This document shows positions 4,764 through 52,055 of a stretch of DNA of 64,000 nt, in pieces; positions within the stretch are counted from its first letter, which is position 1, and the number at the start of each line of letters is the position of its first letter. The notes beneath the pieces are model-generated. The model made no database searches and was not told the origin of the DNA. It saw nothing but the letters and a program-made list of their open reading frames with translations. A program made the translations under genes and the position numbers. The stretch lies in contig JAADDN010000168.1 of NCBI GenBank assembly GCA_013153895.1, positions 17,049 to 81,048 of the forward strand, in the 5' to 3' direction. Source of the DNA: Thermoproteota archaeon. Its GTDB lineage: Archaea > Thermoproteota > Thermoprotei > Thermoproteales > Thermocladiaceae.

Positions 4764-4802
4764 GTTTTTAAGTTGGGTTTTTGGGTTTTAATTTCTTATG
4801 TT

Positions 4803-7448: not shown

Positions 7449-7498
7449 AGAGTAATAATTCTTTAAGAGTCAAAAAGCATTTCCACTATATAGATACG

Positions 7499-7927
7499 TT
7501 ATAACCTATCTCCAATATATATTACTAGTCTATCTTTTCCATATCCTACCATTATACACTTGTCTTCTAATACACCTATCTCCGTTCTATCTATTCTATA
7601 TGTCTGTGATATCTTGAACATACATGCTGCTTTTAATGGTATTTTAAGTTCTCCCTTCCATATATGTCCATTATTGTCTTTTCCTTCTATCTTATCCTCA
7701 TCTATATATACTTCTCTCAGTGCTGTAAGATTCAGATCAGCTAGCGTAGATGACTCTGCTACTGTTGAAAGCTCCTCTCCTTTCCTGTTGAAGAGAAGTT
7801 CCATACATGTTGGAAGATGTGAGATCTCAAGGTTCCTAACTTCTCTCCCTGTTGCTCTTACTAGTGTTATCAGATTATGCTCTCTCCTACCTATCCTATA
7901 GACCTCGTTATTATAGGTGCAATACAT
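7499..7927 (-). CDS. Hypothetical protein, last gene of the left cassette (P6)
   Basis: ATG start. Lies 2 nt downstream of the stop of 7930-8643, on the same strand as the rest of the cassette. Confidence 0.7.
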   Translation of the reverse strand: MYCTYNNEVYRIGRREHNLITLVRATGREVRNLEISHLPTCMELLFNRKGEELSTVAESSTLADLNLTALREVYIDEDKIEGKDNNGHIWKGELKIPLKAACMFKISQTYRIDRTEIGVLEDKCIMVGYGKDRLVIYIGDRL

Positions 7928-7929
7928 GG

Positions 7930-8643
7930 TTAACTATGTGTTATAATGGCTTTAACATTGTTCTCTCCTTCAAGTATTAGGATTGGATGCTCATGTTCCC
8001 ATGGTAGGAAGAACATGTATACTCTTGCTGGCTTGATCTTCTCGAATGCTCTCCTGATCTCCTCGGTACTATATCTTCCTCTTCCTTTCCAGTTTCCTCT
8101 AAGCTCTAGCTCTGTGCTTAGATTTACATATTCTCCCTCTGCTATGATTCTCCTCTTCTCACCATCTATCTCTATGCTAGATGGTTCAAGTTCTAGAGCT
8201 GTTCTAAGCTTATCCATGTTCTCCGTCTCTATGTAGAGTCCATATTCTGGATCAAGCTTGATAAGCGATATACAGCAGCAGGCTCTGCAGTCTGCATAGT
8301 TTTCTGCTCTTATCTCTATGCTGTTCTTCTTTCTCTCTGCTTTCAATTCTATTCCTGTACTGCATCTAGATGATCCATACTCTTCTATGTAGCTCGCAGG
8401 TACGCAGCATACTGCTCCTCTGCCTATAATATATCCATGTGTTCTGTCTGGGCTGATACAGACTATGGTATTATTATTACAGTAGTATCTGACCATGTTT
8501 TTACAATATTTCTCAGCTATGTCTAGTATCTCTCTGCTAGGCTTCTCAACATATGTCTCAGCTATCGGTATCTTCTCCTCTGAGCTTCCACTTCTTAGAG
8601 CCGTGTCTACAAGTCTTTCTATTTTCTCTTCTATACTACTCAT
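7930..8643 (-). CDS. Hypothetical Cys-rich protein (P5)
   Basis: ATG start overlaps the upstream gene. The N-terminus MSSIEEKIERLVDTAL resembles the partial ORF at 63957 (MNSEKIRKTVEEAFE). Confidence 0.8.
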   Translation of the reverse strand: MSSIEEKIERLVDTALRSGSSEEKIPIAETYVEKPSREILDIAEKYCKNMVRYYCNNNTIVCISPDRTHGYIIGRGAVCCVPASYIEEYGSSRCSTGIELKAERKKNSIEIRAENYADCRACCCISLIKLDPEYGLYIETENMDKLRTALELEPSSIEIDGEKRRIIAEGEYVNLSTELELRGNWKGRGRYSTEEIRRAFEKIKPARVYMFFLPWEHEHPILILEGENNVKAIITHS

Positions 8644-9085
8644 GGTTTATCACCATACACATATAATCATAATATGTTTCCCTTTTCCTGTTCATCATAT
8701 ATGTAGCATAGTCTATCCTGCAGTTAATATCCATGTTACCATAATCATACCTCTTTCCCCTCCATAGAATAGTCATTCTCGGGTTCCCAATAACTTTCAT
8801 GCTCATGTTCATCATGTTCTCTAGATCTGTTATAGGTACAACACCATTATCTATGAAACATCTTGCCTCTATTGTGAAGTCCAGCTCTCTCCTGCCTGTC
8901 CTAAATATCTTGGAGAGAATGTTCTCTATCTCTTCGATGTTCTCTGCTGTCTCTATCATATCTTCTTCTCCAGATAATATCGATATTGTATAACTCTGCC
9001 TACCATTCAACATGTTACACATGTTTGAAAACTTTCTCAGAAGCTCACTGACCTCCCTATACTTTGGATGTAATCTATCGGTCAT
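8636..9085 (-). CDS. Hypothetical protein (P4), paralog of 63537-63953
   Basis: ATGA stop/start overlap with the upstream gene. Shared KRYDYG motif and matching length with 63537-63953. Confidence 0.8.
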   Translation of the reverse strand: MTDRLHPKYREVSELLRKFSNMCNMLNGRQSYTISILSGEEDMIETAENIEEIENILSKIFRTGRRELDFTIEARCFIDNGVVPITDLENMMNMSMKVIGNPRMTILWRGKRYDYGNMDINCRIDYATYMMNRKRETYYDYMCMVINHE

Positions 9086-9423
9086 GACTCTCCCTCGACT
9101 ATTTTTCCTGGAACTATTACTAGTCTATACTTATCTGTATCATCTATAATGAATATATATCTAATAAAGTTGCAATGTTCTTCTAATGGTAGCCTATTAC
9201 TATAATATACTATTACTGGCTTCTCCTCTCCTTTCATATAGATTTCTAATGGTATTCTATCAATTTTTAAACTGTTTTTAGATATGTAAGCTCCATCTAG
9301 GTTCTTCCTGTTTTTAAAATTGTTAGATACTATACATGTATTTCCCTGTCTCTCTCCTCCTAATAATGTACATAGTTGTTCTATGTCCAGTCTGTCTCCA
9401 TCTATCCTCTCTCGAGCTATCAT
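9082..9423 (-). CDS. Hypothetical protein (P3), paralog of 63226-63540
   Basis: ATGA overlaps on both sides. IEQLCTLLGGERQGNTCIVSNNF compares with LEELCNMFGGEYRDGMCIIKNF. Confidence 0.8.
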   Translation of the reverse strand: MIARERIDGDRLDIEQLCTLLGGERQGNTCIVSNNFKNRKNLDGAYISKNSLKIDRIPLEIYMKGEEKPVIVYYSNRLPLEEHCNFIRYIFIIDDTDKYRLVIVPGKIVEGES

Positions 9424-18477: not shown

Positions 18478-19812
18478 CAGAAACAGAAGAAGAGAAAAAA
18501 TAAAAACAAAACACTAAACACCAACACACAGTAATAACCCAAAAAACAACAGAAAAATACACCAAGGAACAAAACAACAAACCAAAACAAAACACCACAA
18601 AAATGCGAGTAATACCCACAAAATAAAAACACACCAAGGAACAAAACCGAGTCACACTCCACATTCTCCCCCAGTTCACAGACTAAACCACCCACCAAAA
18701 CTATACACTCTTTCCACACAACACCAAAACTTGTGAACTCCCAACCTCCCTACTTCGCGTAAGTATCTCCCCCGCTACATTAAATACGAGTGCGCCCCCG
18801 CCTTCACGGGTTGTGGAAAATCTCGCAAAATAACATCTCTCTACATGTCAAAAATAAACGATTAAAAACCAATTATGATAATGCTCACACAGACTTAAAA
18901 TAACAATAAAACACAAAAACATACAACCTTAAAAACCCAAAAGAAAAAACATCAACACACAACAAAAAACAATAAGACACAACAGAACAAGATACTTCAT
19001 ACCCCACATTTAGATACCAATAACATGAAAACGAGACCTTCACACCATATATTCTACAAGGCTACCATAAACTCCACAAGAAAACAAACAACTCCACAAG
19101 AAACATCATTACAAAAATCAATTAGCCCTAATTGACCAATGCATTACTCATCAATTAGAGATGCATTATGGTAGAATTGAAATATTAATGCATTCTCAAT
19201 TGACCACCAATTAACCCCCCAGCCGAGAATACATTAACTCTCAATTGAAGCTAATGCATGAAGAATAGAAACAAAATCACAGAAAGTACATGACAAGACC
19301 AAACACCCTAAAAAGAAAACAACACTCCCAAACCAGAACACCTGTGAAAAACATATACGTAATACCACACAAAAATACAAAAACAAACTTAATTAAACAG
19401 CAAAATAATAAATTAAAAAGAGAACGAAACAACACACAGAGGTTTTCTAAAGACAAACCATACACAACTACACAGAAAACAGCAGAAAACAAGTAAAACC
19501 AATAGAATAAATATACCAATAAACCATAAACTCTAGAAAACAAACAGCACTAGAAAACTAATAACATTGATAAAACATGTATAAAAACAATCAAAACAAT
19601 ACACCACACCAGACAGAATAACCATACAATAGACCACGTCGAAGATTATAACTCAAAGTAATACTACAATTTAAGAATAGAAAAACATAAAACATCATAA
19701 AAATACATTAAAACAATAATAACCATATATAGGTAATAAAGATCAAAATAAGACATAAATAAAGTAAAAAGATATAAAAGAAGACTAACATACATGAAAG
19801 AACATATGTACC
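18478..19812. other. Non-coding arm, extremely A+C-rich on the + strand, with short internal repeats and ATGCAT/CAATTG motifs
   Basis: Positions 18481-18540 contain 51/60 A+C (counted). ACACCAAGGAACAAAAC occurs twice, and AACTCCACAAGAAA occurs twice in tandem near 19069-19104. AATGCAT occurs near 19138, 19187 and 19253. Confidence 0.7.
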
Positions 19813-20277
19813 TTATTGACGGCTTTTCAATATATTTATCCATGGATTATCCATTAAGTCCATTAGAATGTTATTATCATGTTTCTTCTCTGTATTACTC
19901 TCATTTTTATACTCTATCTTTTCTATACGTTCTCTAATGTATGATTTATCTATTTTTGATGAAAGTTCTTCAATTTTTCTTTCAAGAATTTCAATCCTAT
20001 TTTGTAAACTTTTAACTATAGTATACATATCTATACTAGACCTATCTTCTACATACATTGCAGTATTATTCACATCTCTACATGATAGTATTTTTCTGAG
20101 GTATGAAGTATCTAGCCTAAATGCTATATCTCTCATAGTTTCTAAACCTAGATGATCTATAAGCAGTTTCACTATTTCCGCACCAAGTTCTATGATTCTA
20201 CTCTGAGAAACATGCAACATATCTGCTAACTGTTCTATAAGTTTTTTAGTATGCTCTCTTACTGTTAGTGTAGGCAT
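19813..20277 (-). CDS. Ribbon-helix-helix (CopG/Arc-like) DNA-binding protein with a coiled-coil C-terminal half
   Basis: MPTLTVREHTKKLIEQLADMLHVSQSRIIELGAEIVKLL fits a strand-helix-helix pattern. It is the only normal-composition ORF inside the 3.6-kb gap. Confidence 0.65.
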   Translation of the reverse strand: MPTLTVREHTKKLIEQLADMLHVSQSRIIELGAEIVKLLIDHLGLETMRDIAFRLDTSYLRKILSCRDVNNTAMYVEDRSSIDMYTIVKSLQNRIEILERKIEELSSKIDKSYIRERIEKIEYKNESNTEKKHDNNILMDLMDNPWINILKSRQ

Positions 20278-21082
20278 GTATATTATAGATATATGAGATA
20301 TATAAACATTCTTGATTAATCATGAAAGATGAGATTGATAATATTCATAAAATATATCTAAATTATATTTATCATGTAGACGTGTCGTCGTTCAACGTAT
20401 TACCGTACTAATATGATTCTATGTTTCTATTTCTAGAATATTGTTACATGTTTGATATAGTAGTTATAGATGGTTTTTGAAGGTTTATCTATATTATTTA
20501 GAATGTATATAAATGATGTGACTGACCAGGTAACAGAGTTGGTAGGGGTCTAGGACTACCTCATAGGATGGAATTGTTCTTCATTTTTTAATTGTTAATC
20601 TATGTATCTATATGTACTATAGGTTACATTTATTTTGTCTAGTTTTTAGACGTGGTTAAAATATTTATTTTCATGTATATACTTGTTACCGTGTTTTGTA
20701 TTATTTTCAGTGTTTTTAGAACGTTCTTATCAGTGTATAATATCTATTATCTATGCTATGTTATATGTATTATGATTATCTGTGTATATTATTCTCTTAT
20801 TATAACATGTTTGGGAGCTAATTGAAACTAATTGAAGTGAAGTTGGGTATTTTTCATGTTTTATATGTTCTATGTTTTTGTGTGTTGTTTTATGTGTTTT
20901 GTTGTTGTTTGATTGGTTTTTCTTTGGTCTTGGTTCTGTTTCTGGTCTGTGCTTGTTTTTGTGTTTTTGTCTTTTAGGATGGCATTTAATTGGACATGCA
21001 TTATATGTATTTTTATGTTGTTTTATGTACTTAATTAAACGTTAATTGATTTCTTGTTCCTGTTCTGTGATTTATTTTTGAT

Positions 21083-21121
21083 GGTTTATGTATTTTTGTG
21101 ATATACATTAGGGGTCAATTA
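21083..21121 (+). repeat. Iteron-like module, copy 1
   Basis: GGTTTATGTATTTTTGTGATATACATTAGGGGTCAATTA. Confidence 0.7.
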
Positions 21122-21243
21122 ACGTATGATTAAGTGTGTTAGTATTTATAAAAATACATTTAATGCATGCTCAATTAGGTCACTGGGTCTGAGTCTACGT
21201 GTCCGTTGGCTGTGCATTATGGTGTTAATATGTGATTATTATT

Positions 21244-21274
21244 GTATTTTTGTGAGATACATTAGGGGTTAATT
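21244..21274 (+). repeat. Iteron-like module, copy 2
   Basis: GTATTTTTGTGAGATACATTAGGGGTTAATT matches 21090-21120 at 29 of 31 positions (counted). Confidence 0.7.
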
Positions 21275-21315
21275 GGTCATGGTCCTATGTGGTAGTTGGG
21301 TGTGTTCTGATTGTT

Positions 21316-21334
21316 CAATTAGTCCCTAATGTAC
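21316..21334 (-). repeat. Inverted copy of the TACATTAGGG-N-CAATT core
   Basis: The reverse complement reads GTACATTAGGGACTAATTG. Another inverted core, CCTAATGTA, lies at 21507-21515. Confidence 0.6.
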
Positions 21335-21847
21335 TTGATAAAAGGTTATTGATGTATGTTTTTGGTGACCATAATGTATGGCTAATTATGTGTATGTTTT
21401 TGATCTTTTGTTATCATGTTTATTCGTTTAATGCATCTGCGGTTAGCTGGACTCTAGTGCAGCTAGTTATTTTATGTGTATTTATAACTTTTTATGATGG
21501 GGACGACCTAATGTATCCATGATGTGGTATTTTTCTCAAGTACATTGATATAATATAGGTTATAGATGTTTGTTATTGGTGTTTAATGTTTAGATGTTAG
21601 GTGATATGGAGTTGAAATGGGGGTTATAGAATTTCTATGTATTATTATACTGTTATGGTTATTAATGTTTTCTATTGTTTTTTATGTTTCTTAATTACTG
21701 GGTTTTCACAAGTTTTCTAGTTTGTGAATTGTTTCAGAATTTAAAATGTATAGTTATGTTGTTTTTTATATTTTTATGATATATGTCTGATATGTTTGTA
21801 TGTGGTTTATTGTTTTTGGTATCATGTTTTTGCTCTGTTTTTGTGTT

Positions 21848-21880
21848 GGTTTATGTATTTTTGGCAGGTACATTAGGGAG
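21848..21880 (+). repeat. Iteron-like module, copy 3 (more diverged)
   Basis: GGTTTATGTATTTTTGGCAGGTACATTAGGGAG. The first 15 nt are identical to 21083-21097. Confidence 0.6.
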
Positions 21881-22133
21881 TTTTGGAACAATAGTATTTG
21901 TTATTGTGTTTTTATGTTTTTGTTTGGTGTTTTGTGTTGTTTTTCGTGTTTGTGGTTTATTGTTTTTCATTGTTGTTTTGTTTTCTTTTCTATGTTTTGT
22001 TTCTCGGTTTTATGTCAATGTACTTCAGATTTTTGTTAGTGTTCTTGTGCTTCTAATGTGTTGGGGATCTGGCTGCAGGTAGTGCGGCTGTGCTGTATGT
22101 TCCTATTATTAATCTTGTTAGTTAGATAGTTCT

Positions 22134-22640
22134 ATGAGGCTGTATGTTCCGTCTAGTCTGGATGAGGCTAGGAGTGTTGTTCCTGGGATTGATGAGGAGA
22201 GGTTCAGGAAGTGGAGGCGTGAGGGTGCTGTTGAGCTTGTTCTTGAGGAGGTTTATGAGGTTGATAATGGGTCTGCATATGTTTTCAGGGATCGTACGGA
22301 GCTTGCATTGACGGGTCATAGGGTTGAGCTTGTTGAGAGGAGTGGACGTTCTATCTATGTTCTATGTCCTGATGCTGTGTATGTGCTTGTTACTGAGAGG
22401 ATTAATGTTCCTAGGAGGCTTCTACCTATAGATTTTAGACCGAGGTCAAGTATTGTACGTGCGGGATGGAATATTGCTACTGCTAATATTGATCCAGGTT
22501 TTAGAGGGAGGCTAATAGTTACATTATATACAGGGAGCAGAGTTACATTATATCTAGAGGATAGATGTAGAATAGTCCAGGTAAGGTTTCTCGAGCTGGA
22601 TAGTGAAGTAGAGGGATATTCAGGTCAGTGGAATGAGTAG
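22134..22640 (+). CDS. dCTP deaminase/dUTPase-family enzyme
   Basis: NIDPGFRGRLIVTLYTGSRVTLYLEDRCRIVQVRF matches the DPGF(R/K)G...Q signature of the trimeric dCTP deaminase/archaeal dUTPase family. Confidence 0.8.
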   Translation: MRLYVPSSLDEARSVVPGIDEERFRKWRREGAVELVLEEVYEVDNGSAYVFRDRTELALTGHRVELVERSGRSIYVLCPDAVYVLVTERINVPRRLLPIDFRPRSSIVRAGWNIATANIDPGFRGRLIVTLYTGSRVTLYLEDRCRIVQVRFLELDSEVEGYSGQWNE

Positions 22641-23001
22641 GAGATATACTACTATAACAGTTGAACGTGAGGTGAAGGAGAAGCTTGAGGAGATTATACG
22701 GGAAGCTGTCGGCGAGGTCTCATGGAACGAGCTGTTTAGGAAGATGGTGAGCAATAGAACGCTTACATTATCCTATATTAGGAAGCTGTATGCAGGCATA
22801 GTAGAGGAGGATCTTCTAAAGATAATGGTAAACATAGTAGAACTGTTATATATATCAATGAGGAAGAATGGACAGTTAAAAGATAAGGAAACTAGAATAC
22901 TACTATATTTAACGGTTAGAAATATTAGAGAGAAATTGAAGGAGCATGGTATGGAGGATGAACGGGTAGAGAGAATATATGAGGAGCTTACAGGAAGCTA
23001 A
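22633..23001 (+). CDS. Hypothetical protein, possibly with an RHH-like N-terminus
   Basis: ATG overlaps the end of the dUTPase gene. TTITVEREVKEKLEEIIRE has a strand-helix pattern. Confidence 0.6.
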   Translation: MSRRYTTITVEREVKEKLEEIIREAVGEVSWNELFRKMVSNRTLTLSYIRKLYAGIVEEDLLKIMVNIVELLYISMRKNGQLKDKETRILLYLTVRNIREKLKEHGMEDERVERIYEELTGS

Positions 23002-23309
23002 TCACTATAGAACATTGGTCTAATCTTCTCACCGATCTCAACATCTTTAACATGTCTCTCAACTACTATAAAGCTCCTAGACTCCTCATCATATATAGCT
23101 ACGAACCTCGTAGGATGAAGCTCATGAGAGATAAATGCAGCAGCCCAGGGAACCCTAGTAACTATACAGTATCCCCTGTTAAGCGGTAGCTGTCTAAGCT
23201 CTCTCTCAAGATACTCGAAGACTTCCCTAGTAGGCTGTAGCTCTCTATCATTAACCTCTATAACTGTACATGGTTCTGCTGGTATTATCCTGAGAAGGTT
23301 CCTCCTCAT
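22998..23309 (-). CDS. Divergent Csx3-like protein (second copy)
   Basis: VTRVPWAAAFISHELHPTRFVAIYDEESRSFIVVERH aligns with the ISGRGPxWL...FVAVYDPR...VVV core of Csx3. It is the last gene of the operon with 23351-23641. Confidence 0.55.
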   Translation of the reverse strand: MRRNLLRIIPAEPCTVIEVNDRELQPTREVFEYLERELRQLPLNRGYCIVTRVPWAAAFISHELHPTRFVAIYDEESRSFIVVERHVKDVEIGEKIRPMFYSD

Positions 23310-23350
23310 TGAAGAAAGAGGTGTGGAGGAGACTGAGAAATCTTACCCTC

Positions 23351-23641
23351 CTATTCTAGCTTGAACATCTGTCCTCTCATTGGTCCTGAAGTTACTATAC
23401 AGGCATTCATTCTCGGCTCATATGTTGCAACTATGTCACCCTCCTTAGCAAGCTCTATGCTGAGAGCAGAGTATAGCCATACTGGTCCTCTCCCTGATAT
23501 GCATACTGGCTTCTCGCTCTTTATCTCAGGCATTGACTGTATCACCTCATTAAGCTCTGATGGCTCTAGTATTCCACCCTCTATCTCGAACTTCAGTAGT
23601 AGAACATTCTTCTTGTCCTCGACCTCCCATCTAACTGGCAT
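23351..23641 (-). CDS. csx3: Csx3 (Crn3-type cyclic tetra-adenylate ring nuclease) homolog
   Basis: 96 aa. KFEIE, CISGRGPVWLYSAL and VATYEPRMNACIV are collinear with A. fulgidus Csx3 as I recall it (HFEIE, ISGRGPIWLHCFL, VAVYDPRLGAVVV). Confidence 0.75.
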   Translation of the reverse strand: MPVRWEVEDKKNVLLLKFEIEGGILEPSELNEVIQSMPEIKSEKPVCISGRGPVWLYSALSIELAKEGDIVATYEPRMNACIVTSGPMRGQMFKLE

Positions 23642-23666
23642 ATGTACATGTACTATGATTCTCTTA

Positions 23667-24305
23667 TTAAGAATTATCTCTGTTTCTCATCTTCTCCTCA
23701 TCATATACGAACATTACTATCCTCATTGTCAGCCTGTTAACAGCATCTTTAAGAGGTAGTGGTGGACTAGGAGCATTCTCTCTTGTGAGACCAGTAAGAA
23801 TACATGTACCTGTCTCAAAGTCTACTCTCGGCTCTCCCTCTAGAGCTGACTCGCATATAGCTACTATATCTACGTTAGGAGTCCTCGATTTTATCTGGTT
23901 AACCCATCCCATCACACAGCTCTCAAAGTCATCTCTCCTGCATAGCACTATGACGCCATCAACATTTCTAAGAATCTTCTCGTTCTCAGCTGTTACTCTT
24001 ATAGGAGGCTTTCCTCCTCCTATATCTACTATAACAATATCAATATTATTATTCTTTCTAAGACCCTCCAATGATCTGACAATCCATTCAAGCTTCTTCT
24101 CAACATTCTGTCTAGATATCTCTTTCAACCTAGTCCTAAGCTCCTCTCTAAGAGACTCTAAGTACCAGGGAGGAGTAGGACTATATAGCTCAGCATCTTG
24201 AAACATTGTTCTTATACCTGACTCTGCAAGTGTACGATATATTAAATGTGATAGAACGCTCTTACCAGTATTGGGATCACCTACAACACCTATAATCCTA
24301 GCCAT
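23667..24305 (-). CDS. P-loop NTPase (SIMIBI-like), possibly a Clp1/Grc3-type polynucleotide kinase
   Basis: Walker A VVGDPNTGKSV and Walker B-like VIVDIGGG. The kinase assignment is inferred only from resemblance to the GxxDxGKS...DxGQ pattern. Confidence 0.7.
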   Translation of the reverse strand: MARIIGVVGDPNTGKSVLSHLIYRTLAESGIRTMFQDAELYSPTPPWYLESLREELRTRLKEISRQNVEKKLEWIVRSLEGLRKNNNIDIVIVDIGGGKPPIRVTAENEKILRNVDGVIVLCRRDDFESCVMGWVNQIKSRTPNVDIVAICESALEGEPRVDFETGTCILTGLTRENAPSPPLPLKDAVNRLTMRIVMFVYDEEKMRNRDNS

Positions 24306-24339
24306 ATAGGATAATACTCTTCTACATGTCTAAAATATT

Positions 24340-25476
24340 ATGAGCTTCTACCCTACAGAGCAGGAGAAGGAGAGCATACGTGTAATGATAGATGGACTGA
24401 TAGATCTGTTGAGAAGAGAGCTGGAGAGGAGAGGAGTACGGTTCTATAAGATAGTTCCAGGAGGCTCAACAGCACAGGGAACCTTCCTACATGGTGATCA
24501 TGATATAGATATTTTCATAGTAACATCAGAGCCAGACAGAGCAATCAGAGTAGTCAGAGAGCTGTTTCCAAGAGGAGTCGAGAAGAAGGGAGAGCTAGAG
24601 ATATGGAACACACATGTAGACGATTATAATATTGATATAGTAGCAGTTAATCCAGAAACCGTAGAAAGATGGTTCACACTTAAACATACTGAGATCTATT
24701 CAAAGATGAGTAATGAACAGAAAAGAATAGCGATAGCACTGAAGGCACTGTTCAAAACATGGTGCGCATATGGAGCAGAGAACGGGGGAATAAGTGGAGT
24801 AGCAGTTGAGGAGCTCGTGAGAAGATTCACAGAGCCAGGAGATACCGTAGACAGAGGAATAGTCAAAGTATGTGAACAGATAGTCATACATGAAGAACCA
24901 TTCTGGCTGCAGGACCCAGCAGCAGAGAGACATGGAATACCTAGGAACCTCCTAGCATCAGTAGTAGAAGAAAAGTGGAGCCTACTACAGAAAGCGTGTA
25001 TAGAATATTTCAACACACGTCAGATACCATATACACCACCAGGAGCGGAGAAATATAGATTCATAAGAGAAAGCGAGGGATGGAAAACAATACAGCTAGA
25101 ATCAACAGGAAACAAGCACCTAGACTTCCACAAGACCAGAAGCATCTGCATAACATACTGTAACAAGCTGAGAAACAGTGAAAAAGATGTACAAGAATGC
25201 ATCTGCGACTCATATAGCGATGGAAAGAAGGTGATAGTAGCAGTAAAAGTACCAGAACAGTTACCACCATATAGGACAGTCTGCATAGAGCCTTGGAAGA
25301 TAGGTAGAGAAGCAGTAGAAAATTTCATAGAAAAGCATCCAGATTATTATATAGATAATTATGGTAGAATATGTACAACAGTACCAAGAAAAATAACAAG
25401 ACCATTCGAATATATTAAACAAAACATAGAGAAAGAATGGGAAAGATATCTAAAAGAGAAGACAAGACACAGCTAG
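24340..25476 (+). CDS. cca: Class I (archaeal-type) CCA-adding tRNA nucleotidyltransferase homolog
   Basis: GGSTAQGTFLHGDHDIDIFIV (GS...DxD), IDIVAV, ERWFTLKHTE, ALKALFKTWCAYGAENGGISGVAVEELV and FWLQDPAAERHGIPRNL are collinear with A. fulgidus CCA enzyme motifs. Confidence 0.75.
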   Translation: MSFYPTEQEKESIRVMIDGLIDLLRRELERRGVRFYKIVPGGSTAQGTFLHGDHDIDIFIVTSEPDRAIRVVRELFPRGVEKKGELEIWNTHVDDYNIDIVAVNPETVERWFTLKHTEIYSKMSNEQKRIAIALKALFKTWCAYGAENGGISGVAVEELVRRFTEPGDTVDRGIVKVCEQIVIHEEPFWLQDPAAERHGIPRNLLASVVEEKWSLLQKACIEYFNTRQIPYTPPGAEKYRFIRESEGWKTIQLESTGNKHLDFHKTRSICITYCNKLRNSEKDVQECICDSYSDGKKVIVAVKVPEQLPPYRTVCIEPWKIGREAVENFIEKHPDYYIDNYGRICTTVPRKITRPFEYIKQNIEKEWERYLKEKTRHS

Positions 25477-25486
25477 ATGCAGTATA

Positions 25487-25609
25487 ATGCATATACATGC
25501 ATTTAGATACTATAAACAATAATAAAAGAACAATACATTACTATATATTATACAATATATCACAATGCATTGCAATGCAATATACTGCATATATATGCAT
25601 ATACATGCA
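25487..25609. repeat. ATGCAT-rich convergent intergenic element with a 15-nt direct repeat
   Basis: ATGCATATACATGCA occurs at 25487-25501 and 25595-25609. Further AATGCAT/TGCAAT units lie near 25563-25580. Confidence 0.55.
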
Positions 25610-25650
25610 GTCACAGTCACCTGTTTAAATATTCGCTACCACAACAAGCA

Positions 25651-26934
25651 TTAGAATATGCTACACGACCCACCTAGCGGACAGATATCAGGTACATAGA
25701 GCCTACTATCAAACATGTTGAAGTGATATAAGTGACCACTCTCTAACAGTCTCTTACATAGGTTTCTTCTAGTTATTTTCGATAGATAACATATGTCCCA
25801 GCTCGCGAAGTCACCACCAACATACTTAAACGATAATTTCTCCAATAGTGGCTTAAGGAACCAGAAGTATACCTTTTCTGGCGGTACCTGTGCTAGCTCT
25901 GGTATTGTCGGCTTATACATTAATGGCAGTATCGATAGTCTAGACTCTATATAGCTTGCAGAAGCATAGTCGAGACCCATAGTAATATCTAGAACATCAT
26001 CATAAGCCGTATCTCTATCTTTCCAACATGCTAGAACCATCAGACACGTCTTAACGTCAAGATCATTAAGTAGCTTAAACGTGTCAGTAATATACTTCAA
26101 GTCATGTGCAACATTTATCAGACCCATATTCTGCATCCACTTTGGTCTAAATGACCATCCAATACATATCTTACTCATATCTACATCATTGTTCTCTAAT
26201 CTGCTAACCAACTCAAACGGCATTGATGTTGAGATCGTGTAGTATGTATATACGTCCATTATGTTTCTACCACGTCTATCATAGAACTCAATTATGTAAT
26301 CACAATACTTGTTTAGATCAACACTGTATCCACTTGGTAGATCCATGCCACGTATAATATATCTTAGATCAGTTACGCGGTATAGGTCATCTATTAAATC
26401 ATTAAGCACTAGATATGGCTCACACGACCCACCAAATGATATCGAGAGATGATAAGTCGGTGGAAGCCCCCTACTATTCTTCTCTCTAATAGTCCTATAA
26501 AGAAGCTTAAGCAGTAGATTCCTTACGGCAGATACGGTCCCAGACTTAACACATGTTACATATCTCGTCCTAGAACCATAGCCTGGCGACTGAGCATAAC
26601 AGAATCTGCATCCTATTGGGCAAGTTCTCTTGTATGATACTACGAGCATTATAGCACTATCATAATCATTATCCTCAATATCTAGGTAAAAATACTCAAA
26701 ACCATTTCCACCTAATGAAGCAATTGGCAGATCACTATCCTGCCTATAATCATCTATAGTTGTAATTATTTTCTCACTACCTCTAACATATATATCATAT
26801 AGCAATCTATCAGCATCTCGTATATTTAAGACATCATCAGCAGATGAACCTCCATAACTATTATCACTATACTTTATACTCAATCTTAATCTAGAACAGT
26901 TGAACTGTATTTGAGAAAGAACCAACTTCCTCAT
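25651..26934 (-). CDS. Radical SAM enzyme with an N-terminal extension of about 100 aa and a C-terminal Cys cluster
   Basis: CPIGCRFCYAQ (CxxxCxxC) at about residue 104. Four Cys in the last 50 aa or so (DICY...NLCK...DICPLGGSCSIF). Confidence 0.85.
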   Translation of the reverse strand: MRKLVLSQIQFNCSRLRLSIKYSDNSYGGSSADDVLNIRDADRLLYDIYVRGSEKIITTIDDYRQDSDLPIASLGGNGFEYFYLDIEDNDYDSAIMLVVSYKRTCPIGCRFCYAQSPGYGSRTRYVTCVKSGTVSAVRNLLLKLLYRTIREKNSRGLPPTYHLSISFGGSCEPYLVLNDLIDDLYRVTDLRYIIRGMDLPSGYSVDLNKYCDYIIEFYDRRGRNIMDVYTYYTISTSMPFELVSRLENNDVDMSKICIGWSFRPKWMQNMGLINVAHDLKYITDTFKLLNDLDVKTCLMVLACWKDRDTAYDDVLDITMGLDYASASYIESRLSILPLMYKPTIPELAQVPPEKVYFWFLKPLLEKLSFKYVGGDFASWDICYLSKITRRNLCKRLLESGHLYHFNMFDSRLYVPDICPLGGSCSIF

Positions 26935-27069
26935 TAAATATATTGGTAGCTAAGTAAGATAAAACCGTTAAAACAACATAACTATATAGAAAAACAGGTA
27001 ATAGCACATGAAAATAGATAACACAGGAAAAAGGAAGAAGAAAATAGGAGAGAAAGAATAGAAAGAAAA

Positions 27070-27243
27070 TTAGACTAGCCCCTGAATACACTTCTCATAA
27101 CAATCACATGCTAATTTATTTTCACAGTCACATACCTCCCAGCACATTAGGTCTTCAAGTTCCTCCTCATCAATATCATTAGAAAGATTATACTTCCTAA
27201 CAATATTTTCAATTAATTGATCATTAATATTTTTTATTGTCAT
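27070..27243 (-). CDS. Small Cys-rich acidic peptide (57 aa). Candidate RiPP precursor or zinc-binding miniprotein.
   Basis: Below the ORF-track length cutoff. Translated base by base: MTIKNINDQLIENIVRKYNLSNDIDEEELEDLMCWEVCDCENKLACDCYEKCIQGLV. TATA-like TTAAATATT is centred about 25 nt upstream. Confidence 0.5.
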   Translation of the reverse strand: MTIKNINDQLIENIVRKYNLSNDIDEEELEDLMCWEVCDCENKLACDCYEKCIQGLV

Positions 27244-27263
27244 GTGACTGAACTATCTTAACT

Positions 27264-27272
27264 AATATTTAA
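27264..27272 (-). promoter_or_regulatory. TATA-like box for the 57-aa ORF
   Basis: The reverse strand reads TTAAATATT, centred about 25 nt from the ATG at 27243. Confidence 0.45.
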
Positions 27273-27369
27273 CCTTTATACCATTCACATAATATATATT
27301 ATGTATTATTCACGTTTTCTAGAAAACATGGAGAAGAGAAAAAGAAGGAAAACAATGCTCTGTATGCTA

Positions 27370-28206
27370 TTACTTGAGTTCTCTCTTCACATGTTTTAGC
27401 ATCTGTCGAACTTTCTCTCTATTCGGCAGCTCATAGTTATGTTTTCTGCATTCTTCTTCTATGTATCTCCATACGTTATTTATCGAAATAGTCTCAATCC
27501 TTCTACCCTTACTTGTTAATTCCATTATTGCTGTCCTAAGAGCATTAAGAATCTCATGGTCAGGTAAGACATCTCTCTTCACCTCTTCAATTTTCTTTCC
27601 TTCTAGAGCATCTAGTAACAGTTTCCACTCGTTCCTGTTCTCCCACTTAATCTTAAGACCAATGAACCTCCTCTGATAAGCTCTCCTCAGACCAGGATAT
27701 CTTGAACTTCCAGTAAATCCATATAACTTGACTATTACTCCCTCTACCTTTCTACCAAGTTCATTCAGTTTCTTAACTGCGAAGTCTATTGCCTGTCTTA
27801 GATCATTAAATGTCCAGTATTCTACCACCTTAAGATCATCCCTTCTAAGATCATCAACATATCTCTCAAGAGGCTCTAGTGTATAGATATCAAATACGCG
27901 ATAATCATAATCACCTTCCCATCCCTCTCTAAAACCTGCTGGAGAGTTCTTTAGTCCACCAAACTCAAAATAGAAATCGTATCTAGACTTCAATATTTCT
28001 GGAAATCTTTCCCTGATAATTTTCATTAAGTTGTCTGGTATTGGATTTAGATTACGAGTATATAACATATCGCCAAATTTTAGAATATTCGCACCATCAT
28101 ACTTCGGCTCAACATATATAACATCAAGCCTTGACTCATTGTTAAGTACTGAATAGATTACCTTTACAAACTCCTTCGGGTTTAAAAGTTCAGGATACTT
28201 TCTCAT
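27370..28206 (-). CDS. ATP-dependent RNA ligase-like nucleotidyltransferase (minimal, no OB domain)
   Basis: Motif I EPKYDGANI (KxDG), III FYFEFGG, IIIa YRVFDIY, IV EGVIVKL, V IGLKIKW. The helical C-terminal 70 aa replace a DNA-ligase OB fold. Confidence 0.8.
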   Translation of the reverse strand: MRKYPELLNPKEFVKVIYSVLNNESRLDVIYVEPKYDGANILKFGDMLYTRNLNPIPDNLMKIIRERFPEILKSRYDFYFEFGGLKNSPAGFREGWEGDYDYRVFDIYTLEPLERYVDDLRRDDLKVVEYWTFNDLRQAIDFAVKKLNELGRKVEGVIVKLYGFTGSSRYPGLRRAYQRRFIGLKIKWENRNEWKLLLDALEGKKIEEVKRDVLPDHEILNALRTAIMELTSKGRRIETISINNVWRYIEEECRKHNYELPNREKVRQMLKHVKRELK

Positions 28207-29972: not shown

Positions 29973-30617
29973 ATGATGAGATCGATAGCTGGATTATTAG
30001 ATAGTGAGAAGATAGATTCATCCACTGTTAGACCTGTATCTGATCTTTTTGAGAGGATAGTTGAGAAGCTTGAGAATGAGAAGGTGCTACGTACTAGGAG
30101 GGCTATTGTGAAGATATGTTATAATGATTATGATTTTAATAATTTTGAGATAGATTATAGTCCTATAAATATTGAGAAGCTTGTAACAGATATGGGAAAA
30201 AGTATTCATAGTATAGGAATGTTTCTTCTCGATTATGATCTCTATATGATGATGTATAGTATAGACCTTTTAAAGATATTGAATACTAATTTTGAGATAT
30301 GGTCATCATATGTTTTAATGAGCATAGATGAAGCATGTAGAATGATGTTAGATATAGTAGAGAAGTATGAGAATATTAGAACAATACATGCAGGAACAGG
30401 AACAGCAGTACGTCCATGTATGAGACTAGTATCAATATATAGGACAGTTAGAGACCTAGAATATGAAATAGAGAAGAGCACAGGAAAGAAGCTGTTAAAC
30501 ATAGAGAAGAAACTTGAGAATATTGATATAGTAGAGATGAGGAACAGTATGATAATAGTAAGAGCTGAAAATCCTAGAGAATATTTCGAAAAATTCTACA
30601 TGAAGATACTATCCTAG
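29973..30617 (+). CDS. Hypothetical protein
   Basis: The track ORF starts at TTG 29910 and overlaps the divergent gene. I prefer the ATG at 29973 (MMRSIAGLL...) because of the TATA position. Confidence 0.7.
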   Translation: MMRSIAGLLDSEKIDSSTVRPVSDLFERIVEKLENEKVLRTRRAIVKICYNDYDFNNFEIDYSPINIEKLVTDMGKSIHSIGMFLLDYDLYMMMYSIDLLKILNTNFEIWSSYVLMSIDEACRMMLDIVEKYENIRTIHAGTGTAVRPCMRLVSIYRTVRDLEYEIEKSTGKKLLNIEKKLENIDIVEMRNSMIIVRAENPREYFEKFYMKILS

Positions 30618-32632
30618 CTAGAATTACTTCTCTTACCGTTAAACTTTCTTAGAGCTCTCAATAGCTCTCTTATTCCAGTCTCAACATCTTCAGTATTTAT
30701 ACTAGTCATATAGATGAACAGCTGATCAAGCCCGAAAGACAACCTCTTCTTCACAAGCTTCTCAAGGTTCTCTCTCCTAAACATCACCTCTACAAACTTA
30801 GCTACGTACCTTGGATCACTATCTCTCAGCAGTCTTCTATAGCTCTTAAATATATTCACCAGTACCTCACCAATCCTATCATACTCCTGATCAATTAATC
30901 CCTCCCTCGCTAGTGATCTCATGATCTGTGCACCCTTTCTACATGTCTCTGCTAGCTGGTCAGCTGGTAGGATATCGGGGTTATAGAGCGCGTATAGGAC
31001 AGCATCAATATCAGGCTCAACAAGCTGCTCAATTCTGGCATTAAACTTCTTAGCAATCCTCTCAACAAGATAAAGCTTTGTTGAACTATCCTCCTCTATG
31101 TCTCGTATATAGATCTCCGCCTCAGGAACATAATACTCAAATGGCGGTGCCTTGCACAGTATCTTCTTCTCATCAAACATTTTCTCCACAGTCCAAACCT
31201 TCTGTAACAGGTAAGATACTGCTAGTACAAATGCTAGTGCAGACTCTATTCTGGACTCCCTGTTCAGATTCTCAAGCTCCTTCCAGTAACCATAGTTGAA
31301 ATAGAAGTCGAAGAGCGGGAAGAGGTATGACGGAACGTACTCTCTCGCTAGTACCCTCCCAAGAGGAGTCAGCTTGTTCTCCTCGTCTATTAGCCTAAGT
31401 TTCTTACAGATCTCAACTCCCGTAGAAAGCTCTGACTTATCTATGAACGGTGGAGCATATCTGACCCATATGTCAATGCTTTTTCCACTGTATGCTAAAC
31501 GTATTGGAAGTACATAATAGTCACCTAATGTTTCTAACCTACCATAAATCCTCTCTAGTGCCCTATTCACAACATCTTCCTCATCTGATGTATATATTAT
31601 GAATCCGTAGCCAACGTTCCAATATCCTGGACGTCCAGCCCTACCCAATACCTGCTGTATCACTGCAGGCTCAATATACTTGACCTCGCCTGGCAGAAAG
31701 AGCTTCAATCCAAGTACTATCACTGTCCTGAAACTGAAGTTGACTGACTGAGATAGCGTGTCAGTAGCAATAATGATCCTATACTTAGGCTCAAGCTTCT
31801 TAAGCTCGTTCTCGATCTCCCTCCTCTTATTAGTTGGTAGCCCAGCATGATGATGAACTATTTCTTCTTCACTTACCCATCCAATCCTATCACATGCTTT
31901 TCTCAATCTCTCAGCAATCTTCTCAGCCATTCTACGACATGGTACATATATTAGTATTGGCGTATATGACCTATCAAGCCTCTTCAACAGTGAAATAAGT
32001 ACCTCATATTTCGTGTTATAGTAAGGCTCAGCTCCTCTACCAAACACGTTTCCACTCATGGGAACCTTCTCTATCCTCAGCTCAACAGGTCTACCATCTA
32101 GAGCAATGACCTCAGCGTTCAGATACTTTTTCAATTCTTCGATCATTGGCATTGTTGCTGATAACATGACTATTCTAGTCCTAGCTCTCTCACTAATCAT
32201 CTTCAAGTGACATAAAATGTCGATTATAGCTGTAGCACGTTCAGGAAACAGTATATTATGAGCCTCGTCTAGGATAATTATAGAATCGTTAAGTATTTCA
32301 TGAAACATCATGATAATAGAGTCAGCACGCTCATACGTTGTAACGATAACAGGTTTAGACCATGTTACATCGAGACGCCAGTTAGGGTCTAAACGTGCGT
32401 CCGAAGTATCAACACCAACATTGTTAGGACCAGCAATTGAACGAGCAGTACGAGCAATATCATCACATGCAGCACGAGTAGGAGCAAGAATAATAATACG
32501 AGAATATTTACCCTCCTGAACAAGCTTCCAAGCAGAGGAAATAGAGTTATATGTTTTTCCAGAACCAGTAGGAGCAATAATGAGGAGGTTAGAAGATTCG
32601 AGAATTTTTGGATCAATTTTTATGAAGACCAT
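30614..32632 (-). CDS. Ski2/Hel308-like SF2 helicase
   Basis: APTGSGKT, ILDEAHNI (DEAH), LSATMP, HHAGLP, ATDTLSQSVNF, QVLGRAGRPGY. Confidence 0.85.
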   Translation of the reverse strand: MVFIKIDPKILESSNLLIIAPTGSGKTYNSISSAWKLVQEGKYSRIIILAPTRAACDDIARTARSIAGPNNVGVDTSDARLDPNWRLDVTWSKPVIVTTYERADSIIMMFHEILNDSIIILDEAHNILFPERATAIIDILCHLKMISERARTRIVMLSATMPMIEELKKYLNAEVIALDGRPVELRIEKVPMSGNVFGRGAEPYYNTKYEVLISLLKRLDRSYTPILIYVPCRRMAEKIAERLRKACDRIGWVSEEEIVHHHAGLPTNKRREIENELKKLEPKYRIIIATDTLSQSVNFSFRTVIVLGLKLFLPGEVKYIEPAVIQQVLGRAGRPGYWNVGYGFIIYTSDEEDVVNRALERIYGRLETLGDYYVLPIRLAYSGKSIDIWVRYAPPFIDKSELSTGVEICKKLRLIDEENKLTPLGRVLAREYVPSYLFPLFDFYFNYGYWKELENLNRESRIESALAFVLAVSYLLQKVWTVEKMFDEKKILCKAPPFEYYVPEAEIYIRDIEEDSSTKLYLVERIAKKFNARIEQLVEPDIDAVLYALYNPDILPADQLAETCRKGAQIMRSLAREGLIDQEYDRIGEVLVNIFKSYRRLLRDSDPRYVAKFVEVMFRRENLEKLVKKRLSFGLDQLFIYMTSINTEDVETGIRELLRALRKFNGKRSNSS

Positions 32633-45440: not shown

Positions 45441-46904
45441 ATGTTCGAGCTTGATGGAAAGAGGGTAAGACCTGAACGTAGACGGATGTTTAAAACTCAT
45501 CTTAAAGCGTTAATCCTTATTCTTATTGTTATGATCTGTATATCAATGTTCTTATTATATCATTATGGTATAACAATGACATTATCAAACGTTGATCCCT
45601 GGGTAGTACGCAGCGTGCTATCAGGTGAGAACACTCCTGTATGGGTATACACGTGGATAGGGGCTAAACTGCCGAAGGACTTTATAGTATGGAGGTTCGA
45701 TACTTTTGAGATAGCTGTAGGATATGTACATAGTTTATCAACATTGGAGTATCTTTCAAAACATAGCTGGTATGTTGGAGGACTAGACTACTATATTATC
45801 GCGCCTCCTAGAATGCCAGTATACTTTCCTAGGAGCGATGCATTGAATGCTTCTAGAGTGAACTATCTCGTAAAGATTCATAATCCATATATGGTATATA
45901 ACGGTACTAATGTTACCATAGCTATTCTAGATACAGGAATAGACTATCTTCTCCCAGTATTCTACACTAACTGTCATGTATCTACAAAATATAGTCATAT
46001 AATTGCAATGGTGAGCTTTGTGGATGGTGGCAGAGTATATATATGGAGTAGAAAGTACTGGCTAGAGGGAAAGAACATGTCATTAACAGAATTATATAGT
46101 TGGGAACAGTCAATATATTCTGTATACGGTGTATATCCATTCATGGACATTGTAGGACATGGAACCGCTGTAGCATCAGTAATCGTTGGACAGCCATGTT
46201 ACTATCATGGTTTCAGCGGTGTAGCTCCAGGTGCTAGGATAGTAATGTTGAAGGTCTTTCCAGACAAGTCAACTACAAGTATCATAATACTGATAGAGGC
46301 ATTGCACTGGCTCTACTTTCACTATAAGGAGTATCATATAAAGATAGTTAGCATGAGCTTGAACGCTTTCACACCAAGCTTCGGAACTTTTTCAGATCCA
46401 ATAAACATTATTCTTCAACATCTAGCAGAGAAGGGGCTCATAATCCTAGTAGCCTCAGGAAACGAGGGAAACTTTCCAGGAAGCCTAGACTCTATAGGAA
46501 ATGCTCCTAATGTATATCTTGTAGGTGCTTGGGATCCTATCCACTGGAAGATCGCGTACTTCACCTCTATGCCTACAGTTGGGCAGCATCCTATTAACTT
46601 TCTAGGAGATGGTTACATGGTGTGGAGTGTTGTTCCTAATAGTAGCATGATATTTAGAGCGGTAAGCGAGTATGTTCCATATCTGATAATGGATAAGAAA
46701 CATGGAATGGTCCTTCTCTCAGGAACATCTCTTGCAACTCCTGCTGTTGCTGGAGTAGTAGCAGACTGGTATCAGTGGTATCTAGAACATTATCATCGTG
46801 CTTCTGCTCCTGAGACACTTGTCAGGATAATATGCTCGAGAGGGTACATTACTGGGAGAATACCGCTAATAGTTACATGTGGTCTTGTGAGAGCGCCTAA
46901 ATAG
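45441..46904 (+). CDS. Membrane-anchored subtilisin-like serine protease (S8)
   Basis: N-terminal TM LKALILILIVMICISMFLLY. Catalytic motifs AILDTGIDY (D), HGTAVASVI (H), ASGNEGN (N), SGTSLATPAVAGV (S). Confidence 0.9.
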   Translation: MFELDGKRVRPERRRMFKTHLKALILILIVMICISMFLLYHYGITMTLSNVDPWVVRSVLSGENTPVWVYTWIGAKLPKDFIVWRFDTFEIAVGYVHSLSTLEYLSKHSWYVGGLDYYIIAPPRMPVYFPRSDALNASRVNYLVKIHNPYMVYNGTNVTIAILDTGIDYLLPVFYTNCHVSTKYSHIIAMVSFVDGGRVYIWSRKYWLEGKNMSLTELYSWEQSIYSVYGVYPFMDIVGHGTAVASVIVGQPCYYHGFSGVAPGARIVMLKVFPDKSTTSIIILIEALHWLYFHYKEYHIKIVSMSLNAFTPSFGTFSDPINIILQHLAEKGLIILVASGNEGNFPGSLDSIGNAPNVYLVGAWDPIHWKIAYFTSMPTVGQHPINFLGDGYMVWSVVPNSSMIFRAVSEYVPYLIMDKKHGMVLLSGTSLATPAVAGVVADWYQWYLEHYHRASAPETLVRIICSRGYITGRIPLIVTCGLVRAPK

Positions 46905-51998: not shown

Positions 51999-52055
51999 GT
52001 GTTTATAATAGGTTATGCGATATTAAAGCGGGATCTATGATGGTTAAGTGAGTAG

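Follow-up and report, generated by a model that had tools for sequence, protein, structure and literature searches.

A split Csx3-NTPase module with complementary Csx3 half-sites, next to CCA-type and RNA-ligase-like enzymes, on a candidate viral element of a crenarchaeon

Why should a crenarchaeal contig carry a set of putative RNA-end enzymes next to two csx3 genes? The stretch analyzed here (the window) comprises 64,000 nucleotides (nt) of contig JAADDN010000168.1, a 90,945-nt contig filed as a Crenarchaeota metagenome-assembled genome (MAG). At positions 23667-28206 the original prediction had placed a P-loop kinase, a CCA-adding enzyme and an RNA ligase, which together with the adjoining Csx3 proteins were thought to form a two-part counter-defence island that destroys the signal of type III CRISPR systems and repairs the RNA damage. 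The robust result of our analysis is a split mobile-element Csx3-AAA module with complementary Csx3 half-sites, which is recurrently joined by a CCA-type nucleotidyltransferase. The original prediction proved largely right in what it observed and partly right in how it read it. With a little more than even confidence, we read the region as an anti-type-III ring-nuclease module of the Crn3 type, residing on a virus-like element of a hyperthermophilic crenarchaeon and accompanied by accessory RNA-end enzymes. The genes in question are the following:

22998-23309, minus strand: Csx3b, 103 amino acids (aa), a Csx3/Crn3 paralog (PF09620, E 1.5e-8; PADLOC Csx3 models, E 1e-9).
23351-23641, minus strand: Csx3a, 96 aa, a Csx3/Crn3 paralog (PF09620, E 3.4e-13).
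23667-24305, minus strand: P-loop nucleoside triphosphatase (NTPase) of the Csx3-AAA family, 212 aa, stand-alone, SIMIBI-like.
24340-25476, plus strand: CCA-like nucleotidyltransferase, 378 aa, a divergent homologue of class I (archaeal-type) CCA-adding enzymes.
27370-28206, minus strand: RNA-ligase-like enzyme, 278 aa, with a nucleotidyltransferase domain (1-187) and a helical C-domain (188-278).

The list of open reading frames (ORFs) contained the P-loop, CCA-like and ligase genes at exactly the coordinates that had been predicted, and every quoted motif string was present: GDPNTGKS and DIGGG in the P-loop protein, GGS...DHDID in the nucleotidyltransferase, and KYDG, FEFGG, FDIY, EGVIVK and KIK in the ligase. 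Each of the three has conserved homologues, which rules out that they are chance ORFs.

To which family does the P-loop protein belong? Single-sequence searches of the PDB with this protein and with the CCA-like protein returned motif-level matches only, and profile searches were therefore used; Pfam and NCBIfam gave generic P-loop matches for the P-loop protein. The curated PADLOC models were specific: PDLC01515 ('Csx3', CAS-III-associated) matched with E 1.2e-13 (positions 8-177 of 183), PDLC01045 ('Csx3-AAA') with E 6.5e-11 over its AAA part (111-261 of 286) and PDLC01059 ('AAA-Csx3') with E 9e-6. Because of these matches we assigned the protein to the Csx3-AAA family. A homologue was found at E 5e-42, and homologues from Great Boiling Spring contigs, at 45% identity, follow a Csx3 gene after 8 nt, in neighbourhoods that contain neither a ligase nor a CCA gene. 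Among 1.8 billion representatives, a profile search recovered 235 relatives, and half of those scanned (29 of 58) carry a PF09620 (Cas_csx3) domain. The commonest architecture is Csx3-Csx3-NTPase (∼410-470 aa), and Csx3-NTPase, NTPase-Csx3 and stand-alone forms also occur. A census of the neighbours at 15 bacterial loci with NTPase relatives counted RAMPs (7), Cmr3 (3), Cas10 palm2 (3), Cas1 (2) and Cmr2_N (2). In four further lineages of elements (loci L002/L004/L005, L011/L019, L098 and L101), stand-alone NTPase genes lie directly beside Csx3 genes. The Crn3-ATPase fusion has been described, with its function unknown (PMC8284326, PMC12409355, PMC9676260). The P-loop protein corresponds to the NTPase domain that in type III CRISPR loci follows one or two Csx3 domains in the same polypeptide, here as a protein of its own.

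The fold of the NTPase was predicted with AlphaFold2 (AF2) from five sequences (predicted local distance difference test, pLDDT, 76). A Foldseek search of the PDB with this model returned FleN, NifH, the HypB ATPase, BchL, MinD, Soj and FtsY with TM-scores of 0.5-0.64, so that the model, of moderate confidence, comes closest to the MinD/NifH type within the SIMIBI class; the SIMIBI-type fold that had been proposed is thus borne out. The features of that class are present, namely a Walker A motif, an acidic switch-I motif after strand 2 and a Walker B motif of the form hhhhD-x-G-G. The family is further defined by the motifs G-D-P-x-[ST]-G-K-S, [DE]-x-D-x-x-[AS]-P-T-x-x-W, R57, K61, hhhh-D-x-[PG]-G-G, R103, W134 and G-L-x-R175, with G9, D10, P11, G14, K15, S16, T44, W47, K61, D94, G97, G98, R103, W134 and R175 invariant. 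A MinD/ParA ATPase with a deviant Walker A motif was rejected, the invariant G-D-P-N-[ST]-G-K-S being devoid of the signature lysine (KGGxGK[ST]). The Clp1/Grc3 polynucleotide-kinase pattern read into the protein found no counterpart: Clp1, Grc3, Nol9 and T4 Pnk were absent among the 50 best Foldseek hits in the PDB, the 60 best hits of the profile against the PDB, and the Pfam and NCBIfam matches. The proposed Clp1/PNK-like kinase gives way to a Csx3-AAA protein with a predicted MinD/NifH-like fold and no specific similarity to Clp1 or PNK. The original prediction had named membership in a non-kinase family as the outcome that would refute the kinase, and this outcome was obtained. Because this family is not a kinase family, the P-loop protein belongs to the signal-destroying half of the island and not to its repair half; the former half gains a member and the latter loses its kinase.

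Some relatives of the NTPase outside the window are longer. About 16 of 150 are 860-920 aa in length, and the five that were scanned consist of Csx3-Csx3-NTPase followed by a cytidine-deaminase-like domain. The proteins with extended architectures that were looked at are P0029, P0034, P0044, P0052, P0054, P0055 and P0033; P0044 has an additional GS...DxD Pol-beta nucleotidyltransferase domain, P0054 (722 aa) a deaminase-like domain too, and P0033 (599 aa) an HD_4 domain instead. Their domain composition suggests that the long proteins are multi-enzyme effectors that sense cyclic tetra-adenylate (cA4).

The two Csx3 paralogs lie directly behind the NTPase gene on the same strand (order NTPase-Csx3a-Csx3b, with gaps of 25 and 41 nt), and the Archaeoglobus fulgidus Csx3 (AfCsx3) structures 6yud and 3wzi match Csx3a at E 6e-12. 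In AfCsx3, S44, G45, R46, D69 and R71 lie on the cA4-binding face, and H57, H60 and H80 on the opposite face (PMC7371418). Cleavage of cA4 by this enzyme requires that the D69 face of a dimer be apposed to the H60 face of a second dimer, and mixing the inactive H60A and D69A variants brings the activity back (PMC7371418). The equivalent residues in the window proteins and their relatives are:

Csx3a of the window: S G R at S44 G45 R46, I K at H57 H60, E R at D69 R71, H80 absent.
Csx3b of the window: V T R at S44 G45 R46, H H at H57 H60, D E at D69 R71, H80 present.
First Csx3 of L098: S G R at S44 G45 R46, H L at H57 H60, E R at D69 R71, H80 absent.
Second Csx3 of L098: K L T at S44 G45 R46, H H at H57 H60, D E at D69 R71, H80 present.
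Single Csx3 of L002, L011 and L101: S G R at S44 G45 R46, H H at H57 H60, E R at D69 R71, H80 present.

In Csx3a the cA4-binding ('D69') face is retained and none of the three histidines is left; Csx3b has the histidine ('H60', metal) face and neither the SGR motif nor R71. Neither paralog has both catalytic faces, yet the pair combined has both, whereas in the relatives with a single Csx3 both faces are found within one protein. L098 is an independent lineage, in which the two Csx3 genes (339-668 and 1305-1610) flank an NTPase gene whose product is 51% identical to that of the window. Because the half-sites are complementary and AfCsx3 needs both faces, we infer an obligate heteromer of Csx3a and Csx3b as the ring nuclease. 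NTPase, Csx3a and Csx3b of the window are the Csx3-Csx3-NTPase fusion in the form of three separate polypeptides.

The CCA-like protein belongs to a family of eight sequences, i.e., itself and seven database relatives, all from metagenomic or mobile-element contigs (E 1e-126 to 4e-63). The proposed class I CCA-adding homology was confirmed: the model of the archaeal CCA enzyme, TIGR03671, matched with E 2.6e-20 over positions 9-402 of 410, at 72.6 bits against an equivalog cutoff of 281, PF01909 matched with E 2e-8, and the family profile aligned with residues 14-287 of the A. fulgidus CCA enzyme (AfCCA, 1r89) with E 1.6e-14. The second-best PDB match of the profile was 2′-5′ oligoadenylate synthase (E 1e-5), over the core only. 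Invariant in the family and aligned with the AfCCA motifs are G42 and S43, D55 and D57 (DxD), and the third carboxylate, D99. R202 and N203, also invariant, align with the AfCCA 'RN' motif, whose R224 we take to be the nucleotide-selecting arginine. Identity to cellular enzymes is ∼23-30%; the tail is divergent and Cys-rich, and the PDB profile alignment ends at AfCCA residue 287. Judged from these motifs, the protein is a divergent nucleotidyltransferase of the class I CCA-adding type with an intact catalytic core. Eight Cys residues in the C-terminal half (C178, C220, C270, C274, C287, C289, C315 and C345) are invariant throughout the family, a trait that the aligned A. fulgidus enzyme does not share. 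In the body/tail region they may bind a metal or form disulfides.

Linkage of the CCA-type gene to Csx3 and the NTPase recurs in a second lineage. At L011, Csx3 (7342-7650), NTPase (7654-8250) and the CCA-like gene (8254-9372) form an operon on one strand with 3-nt gaps, and L019, from a different sample, has the identical gene order. Since CCA-like genes and Csx3-NTPase pairs each occur without the other, this link is recurrent and not obligatory. Neither the window nor 10 related loci yielded a tRNA gene, and viral tRNA genes were discarded as the rationale for a CCA enzyme. An attack of Csx1 on the tRNA CCA tail is weakened as a rationale and was not adopted: SisCsx1 prefers 5′-C-C-3′ and cleaves poorly if the site is near an RNA end (PMC6754442). 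Because this preference fails near RNA ends, a direct attack on the tail is not supported by that study.

The ligase has homologues at E 6e-80 to 2e-21. As had been claimed, all its nucleotidyltransferase motifs are conserved: in nine family sequences K35 (KYDGAN), E81, G83 and G84, D106, E155, G156 and K160, and K185 and K187 are invariant (motifs I, III, IIIa, IV and V). PF09414 (RNA_ligase) matched two family members with E 3e-9, and no Pfam family matched the window protein itself. The AF2 model (pLDDT 89) consists of a nucleotidyltransferase domain followed by an all-helical domain (188-278), and no oligonucleotide/oligosaccharide-binding (OB) fold was seen in it, which agrees with the original prediction. 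In a Foldseek search of the PDB, Rnl3 (5d1o, 8uci and 2vug) and T4 Rnl2 came out on top, with TM-scores of at most 0.45. The best match in BFVD was a 270-aa RNA-ligase-domain protein of Sulfolobus islandicus rod-shaped virus 11 (SIRV11), followed by 'RNA ligase 2' proteins of phages and giant viruses. Motif I reads KxDGxN (KYDGAN, N40 invariant) vs. KxDGxR (KIDGIR) in the aligned DNA ligases; an N at this position is, we assume, typical of Rnl2 and Rnl3, and serves as a lead only. A DNA ligase of the PBCV-1/Lig E type was rejected, as residues 188-278, where such a ligase would have its OB-fold domain with motif VI, are predicted to be all-helical, and motif I is of the KxDGxN form. The model and motifs support an ATP-dependent, RNA-ligase-like enzyme that resembles Rnl2/Rnl3, a candidate RNA ligase that might instead act on DNA. 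The window and the ligase loci had no genes in common beyond the target genes, and of the clustering that had been proposed the linkage of the ligase is not conserved. Its association with the Csx3-NTPase module is unproven.

Could these enzymes repair RNA? RNases of the CARF-HEPN type leave 5′-hydroxyl (5′-OH) and 2′,3′-cyclic phosphate (2′,3′>P) ends, and a classic ATP-dependent ligase requires a 5′-phosphate (5′-P) and a 3′-OH. A 5′-kinase, 2′,3′-cyclic phosphodiesterase or 3′-phosphatase turned up neither in family scans of the window ORFs nor when ten neighbouring ORFs were scanned with Pfam. Because neither a 5′-kinase, the P-loop protein having been reassigned, nor a 3′-phosphoesterase is detectable, a T4-like heal-and-seal pathway is not encoded, and because healing enzymes were not detected the ligase could not seal the ends left by CARF-HEPN RNases. 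On its own it could seal 5′-P/3′-OH nicks. A cA4-activated, Mg-dependent Schlafen nuclease (Cash) has been found to cleave tRNA loops in bacteria (PMC13462974).

Three further features lie among the genes considered so far:

24306-24339, no strand: AT-rich intergenic stretch of 34 nt between the divergent start codons of the NTPase and CCA-like genes.
25651-26934, minus strand: CxxxCxxC ORF, 427 aa, with C105-x3-C109-x2-C112 and FGGSCEP, radical-SAM-like.
27070-27243, minus strand: small ORF, 57 aa, with an acidic middle and a Cys-rich C-terminus.

The 34-nt spacer may hold back-to-back promoters. The two ORFs, which the original prediction had omitted, separate the CCA-like gene from the ligase gene, 1.9 kb away. 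The 427-aa ORF gave no Pfam, NCBIfam or PDB sequence match and has relatives in the same lineage only (L016); its CxxxCxxC and GG..EP motifs suggest a very divergent radical SAM enzyme. It has no similarity to a 438-aa gene product adjoining the L007 ligase. L011 encodes a Radical_SAM/SPASM protein (4576-5628) ∼1.7 kb upstream of its Csx3-NTPase-CCA operon, with no detectable similarity to the 427-aa ORF. The 57-aa ORF is 83% identical to its L016 copy and matched no family in Pfam or NCBIfam.

On what kind of element does the module reside? The majority of the window ORFs are without family match, no cas or tRNA genes were seen in the window, and Rfam matched nothing over 17-30 kb. A 672-aa DEAD/Helicase_C protein (30614-32632, minus strand) has its closest matches, at 27-31% identity, in Betalipothrixviruses and SIFV, where the protein is named 'Holliday junction branch migration helicase', and this similarity ties the element, tentatively, to crenarchaeal filamentous viruses. 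When a phage collection was searched by megablast and tblastn (with the region, the CCA-like protein, the ligase and an 881-aa ORF) no match was obtained; the helicase alone matched, to lipothrixviruses. A relative of the CCA-like gene is located on an IMG/VR viral contig, and IMG/VR scans with the three families gave just 1-2 distant loci per family. The element brings its own nucleotide-metabolism genes, a dUTPase/dCTP-deaminase-like gene (22134-22640, plus strand) and an anaerobic ribonucleotide reductase, NrdD (50109-51998, minus strand; E 9e-78), together with several helicases and defence-like genes. Such gene content suggests a large virus, or a mobile element of another kind, with a hyperthermophilic host.

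The defence-like genes include an S8 subtilase (45441-46904, plus strand) and an AAA ATPase (48086-49795, plus strand; PADLOC IetA, E 4e-35), which by sequence look like an IetAS-type defence pair. Their counterparts at L002, a Great Boiling Spring locus, (3-1589 and 5433-6887) are the sole genes besides Csx3 and the NTPase that L002 and the window have in common. A 406-aa protein (52048-53268, plus strand; GmrSD_N, E 6e-19; PADLOC NsnA, E 5e-37) is encoded by a defence-type nuclease gene. Elsewhere in the window, ∼3.5 kb (18500-22100) contain hardly any credible ORF and have a mirrored strand composition, A/C-rich to ∼19.8 kb and G/T-rich from ∼20.6 kb, with a GC content as low as 0.29 and short degenerate tandem repeats of 20-46 nt. 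The two arms flank a 154-aa ORF (19813-20277), Rfam gave no match, and the segment may be an origin or a regulatory region.

We propose that the first group of genes (22998-24305, minus strand) would act as a three-polypeptide ring nuclease of the Crn3 type. In this mechanism a dimer of Csx3a and one of Csx3b would hold cA4 between them as in a sandwich and together complete one active site, and the SIMIBI-type NTPase would promote the assembly or turnover of the sandwich. SIMIBI proteins typically dimerise upon nucleotide binding, and for this reason the NTPase could assemble or recycle the complex. The element would thereby erase the cA4 alarm of the host. The second group, the CCA-type enzyme and the Rnl2/Rnl3-like ligase, would restore RNA after the host response, most plausibly tRNA 3′ ends and 5′-P/3′-OH nicks. 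The counter-defence role of the Csx3 part is well supported, and the damage-repair role of the CCA-like enzyme and the ligase is plausible but unproven. In a fuller version, which we regard as unlikely in its entirety, the half-site paralogs would form a capped heterotetramer without filament growth, the NTPase would drive its assembly or turnover, and a co-evolving CCA-type enzyme and Rnl-type ligase would restore tRNAs nicked or trimmed by cA4-activated nucleases. If true, it would give the Csx3-associated NTPase its first function, and the locus would be the first anti-CRISPR based on Crn3 and the first to include a repair arm.

Several observations weigh against the proposal. The viral nature of the contig is not proven, and it could instead be a plasmid or a genomic island of the MAG. 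The NTPase model is of moderate quality only, its assembly or turnover role is pure inference, and a phosphotransfer (kinase-like) activity is conceivable, as the SIMIBI class includes such enzymes. Most Csx3 domains of the bacterial fusions are devoid of H57 and H60, in an alignment that is less secure, and the module, judging from sequence, may serve cells as a cA4 sensor-effector instead of a nuclease. At L008-L010 and L012 a CCA-like gene is present and neither Csx3 nor NTPase, and Csx3-NTPase pairs are found without a CCA-like gene at L002-L005, L098 and L101. The ligase is linked to the Csx3, NTPase and CCA-like genes in its own lineage only (L016), the homologues at L001, L006 and L007 having no such neighbours, and DNA ligases interleave with RNA ligases in its Foldseek list, at TM-scores of at most 0.45.

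The alternative that survives best, though still unlikely, is that the ligase and the CCA-type enzyme have general tasks in the nucleic-acid metabolism of the virus (sealing of nicks during replication or repair, maintenance of tRNA 3′ ends, or circularisation of RNA) and merely lie near the anti-CRISPR module in an accessory-gene region. This would fit the ligase homologues that stand alone among unrelated ORFs, the CCA-like genes without Csx3, the dUTPase, NrdD and several helicases of the window, and the fact that a rudivirus encodes a similar RNA-ligase-domain protein. The tight L011/L019 operon, and the adjacency that persists in the window despite rearrangement, argue instead for a functional link, at least for the CCA-type gene, and the loci scanned yielded no viral tRNA gene whose product would require CCA addition.

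It is less probable that the CCA-like enzyme acts in the cyclic-oligoadenylate pathway and not on tRNA, e.g., by extending or capping the linear A2/A4 products of Csx3 or by making a competing oligonucleotide. The same operon with Csx3 and the NTPase could be read in this way, as could the extra nucleotide-modifying domains of the long bacterial Csx3-Csx3-NTPase proteins (cytidine-deaminase-like, HD_4 and GS...DxD Pol-beta nucleotidyltransferase), the match to oligoadenylate synthase and the divergent, Cys-rich C-terminal half. However, that match is limited to the shared Pol-beta core, the TIGR03671 alignment is full-length and includes the body and tail regions, and the AfCCA R224-type 'RN' motif is invariant. 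The nucleotidyltransferase domain of the bacterial fusions is not CCA-like (profile E 1.8), and its homology to the CCA-like family was not supported.

Least probable of all is the T4-like pathway, in which the P-loop protein would phosphorylate 5′-OH RNA, the ligase would seal it and the CCA enzyme would rebuild tRNA 3′ ends after damage by RNases activated by cyclic oligoadenylates: the SIMIBI class is shared with Clp1, weak matches link the P-loop protein to the tRNA-dependent kinases PSTK and KTI12 (E 0.015-0.05), the CCA-type and Rnl-type enzymes are real and cA4-activated tRNA nucleases are known (PMC13462974), but the P-loop protein is a Csx3-AAA protein that travels with Csx3 and not with the ligase, Clp1, Grc3 and T4 Pnk were missing from the best hits named above, no 3′-end-healing phosphoesterase was detected in the neighbourhood although 2′,3′>P ends need one, and the ligase linkage is unconserved.

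How does the proposed module, with its accessory enzymes, compare with known systems? Phage T4 Pnkp and Rnl1 are likewise mobile-element genes able to restore tRNA after attack by a host nuclease, with an ATP-dependent RNA-ligase-type enzyme in both cases. The window, however, has no detectable polynucleotide kinase or 3′-phosphatase, its ligase is Rnl2/Rnl3-like and not Rnl1-like, and it has a CCA-type enzyme, which the T4 pathway does not. With T4 Rnl2 (2hvq), archaeal Rnl3 (5d1o and 2vug) and the SIRV11 protein the ligase shares a covalent nucleotidyltransferase core, motifs I, III, IIIa, IV and V, and a non-OB helical C-domain. Unlike Rnl3, it has no Rnl3 N-terminal domain, and the TM-scores are low (at most 0.45). 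The CCA-like protein resembles the A. fulgidus CCA enzyme (1r89; TIGR03671), in the TIGR03671 alignment over its full length though with a divergent tail, and has GS, DxD, the third carboxylate, a YGAE-type segment and the RN motif; it differs from archaeal CCA enzymes in being shorter (378 aa), in its ∼23-30% identity, in a score far under the cutoff and in its eight invariant Cys. Genes for the Pol-beta nucleotidyltransferase RlaP (PF10127) are described as linked to RNA ligases and proposed for RNA repair (PMC12776372). A Pol-beta-superfamily nucleotidyltransferase near an RNA ligase is common to both, whereas the window enzyme is CCA class I-like and not PF10127, and its conserved partner is Csx3-NTPase and not the ligase. 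The recurrent CCA-type link suggests that RNA 3′ ends, possibly those of tRNA, are a target of crenarchaeal type III responses.

Among anti-CRISPR enzymes the closest parallel is AcrIII-1 (DUF1874), a mobile-element enzyme that destroys cA4 and blunts type III CRISPR signalling (PMC7371418), as the window module would do; AcrIII-1 differs in that it is a single small protein of unrelated fold without an NTPase partner. Among the ring nucleases in 28,114 phage genomes, a survey of 2025 listed AcrIII-1, Csx16 and Csx20 and reported no Crn3 (PMC12409355); with a Crn3 module on a mobile element, viral ring nucleases would gain a third type.

The nearest relatives are the Csx3-AAA (Crn3-ATPase) fusions, of which Synechocystis Slr7080 is an example and which Shah et al. 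reportedly listed in 2019 as an accessory family of type III CRISPR loci. They share a homologous NTPase domain and one or two Csx3 domains, and their cellular copies lie in Cmr/Cas10 neighbourhoods, whereas the window module is split over three genes on a virus-like element and its Csx3 half-sites are complementary. The literature labels the Csx3-fused domain AAA+, in contrast to the SIMIBI (MinD/NifH-like) fold predicted for the window NTPase. The fused NTPase has been noted since 2019 without a known function, and a version from a hyperthermophile that is split by nature makes its parts available one by one for biochemical work. The half-site Csx3 pair is nature's parallel to the experiment in which the H60A and D69A variants of AfCsx3 were mixed, and predicts a defined heteromeric ring nuclease.

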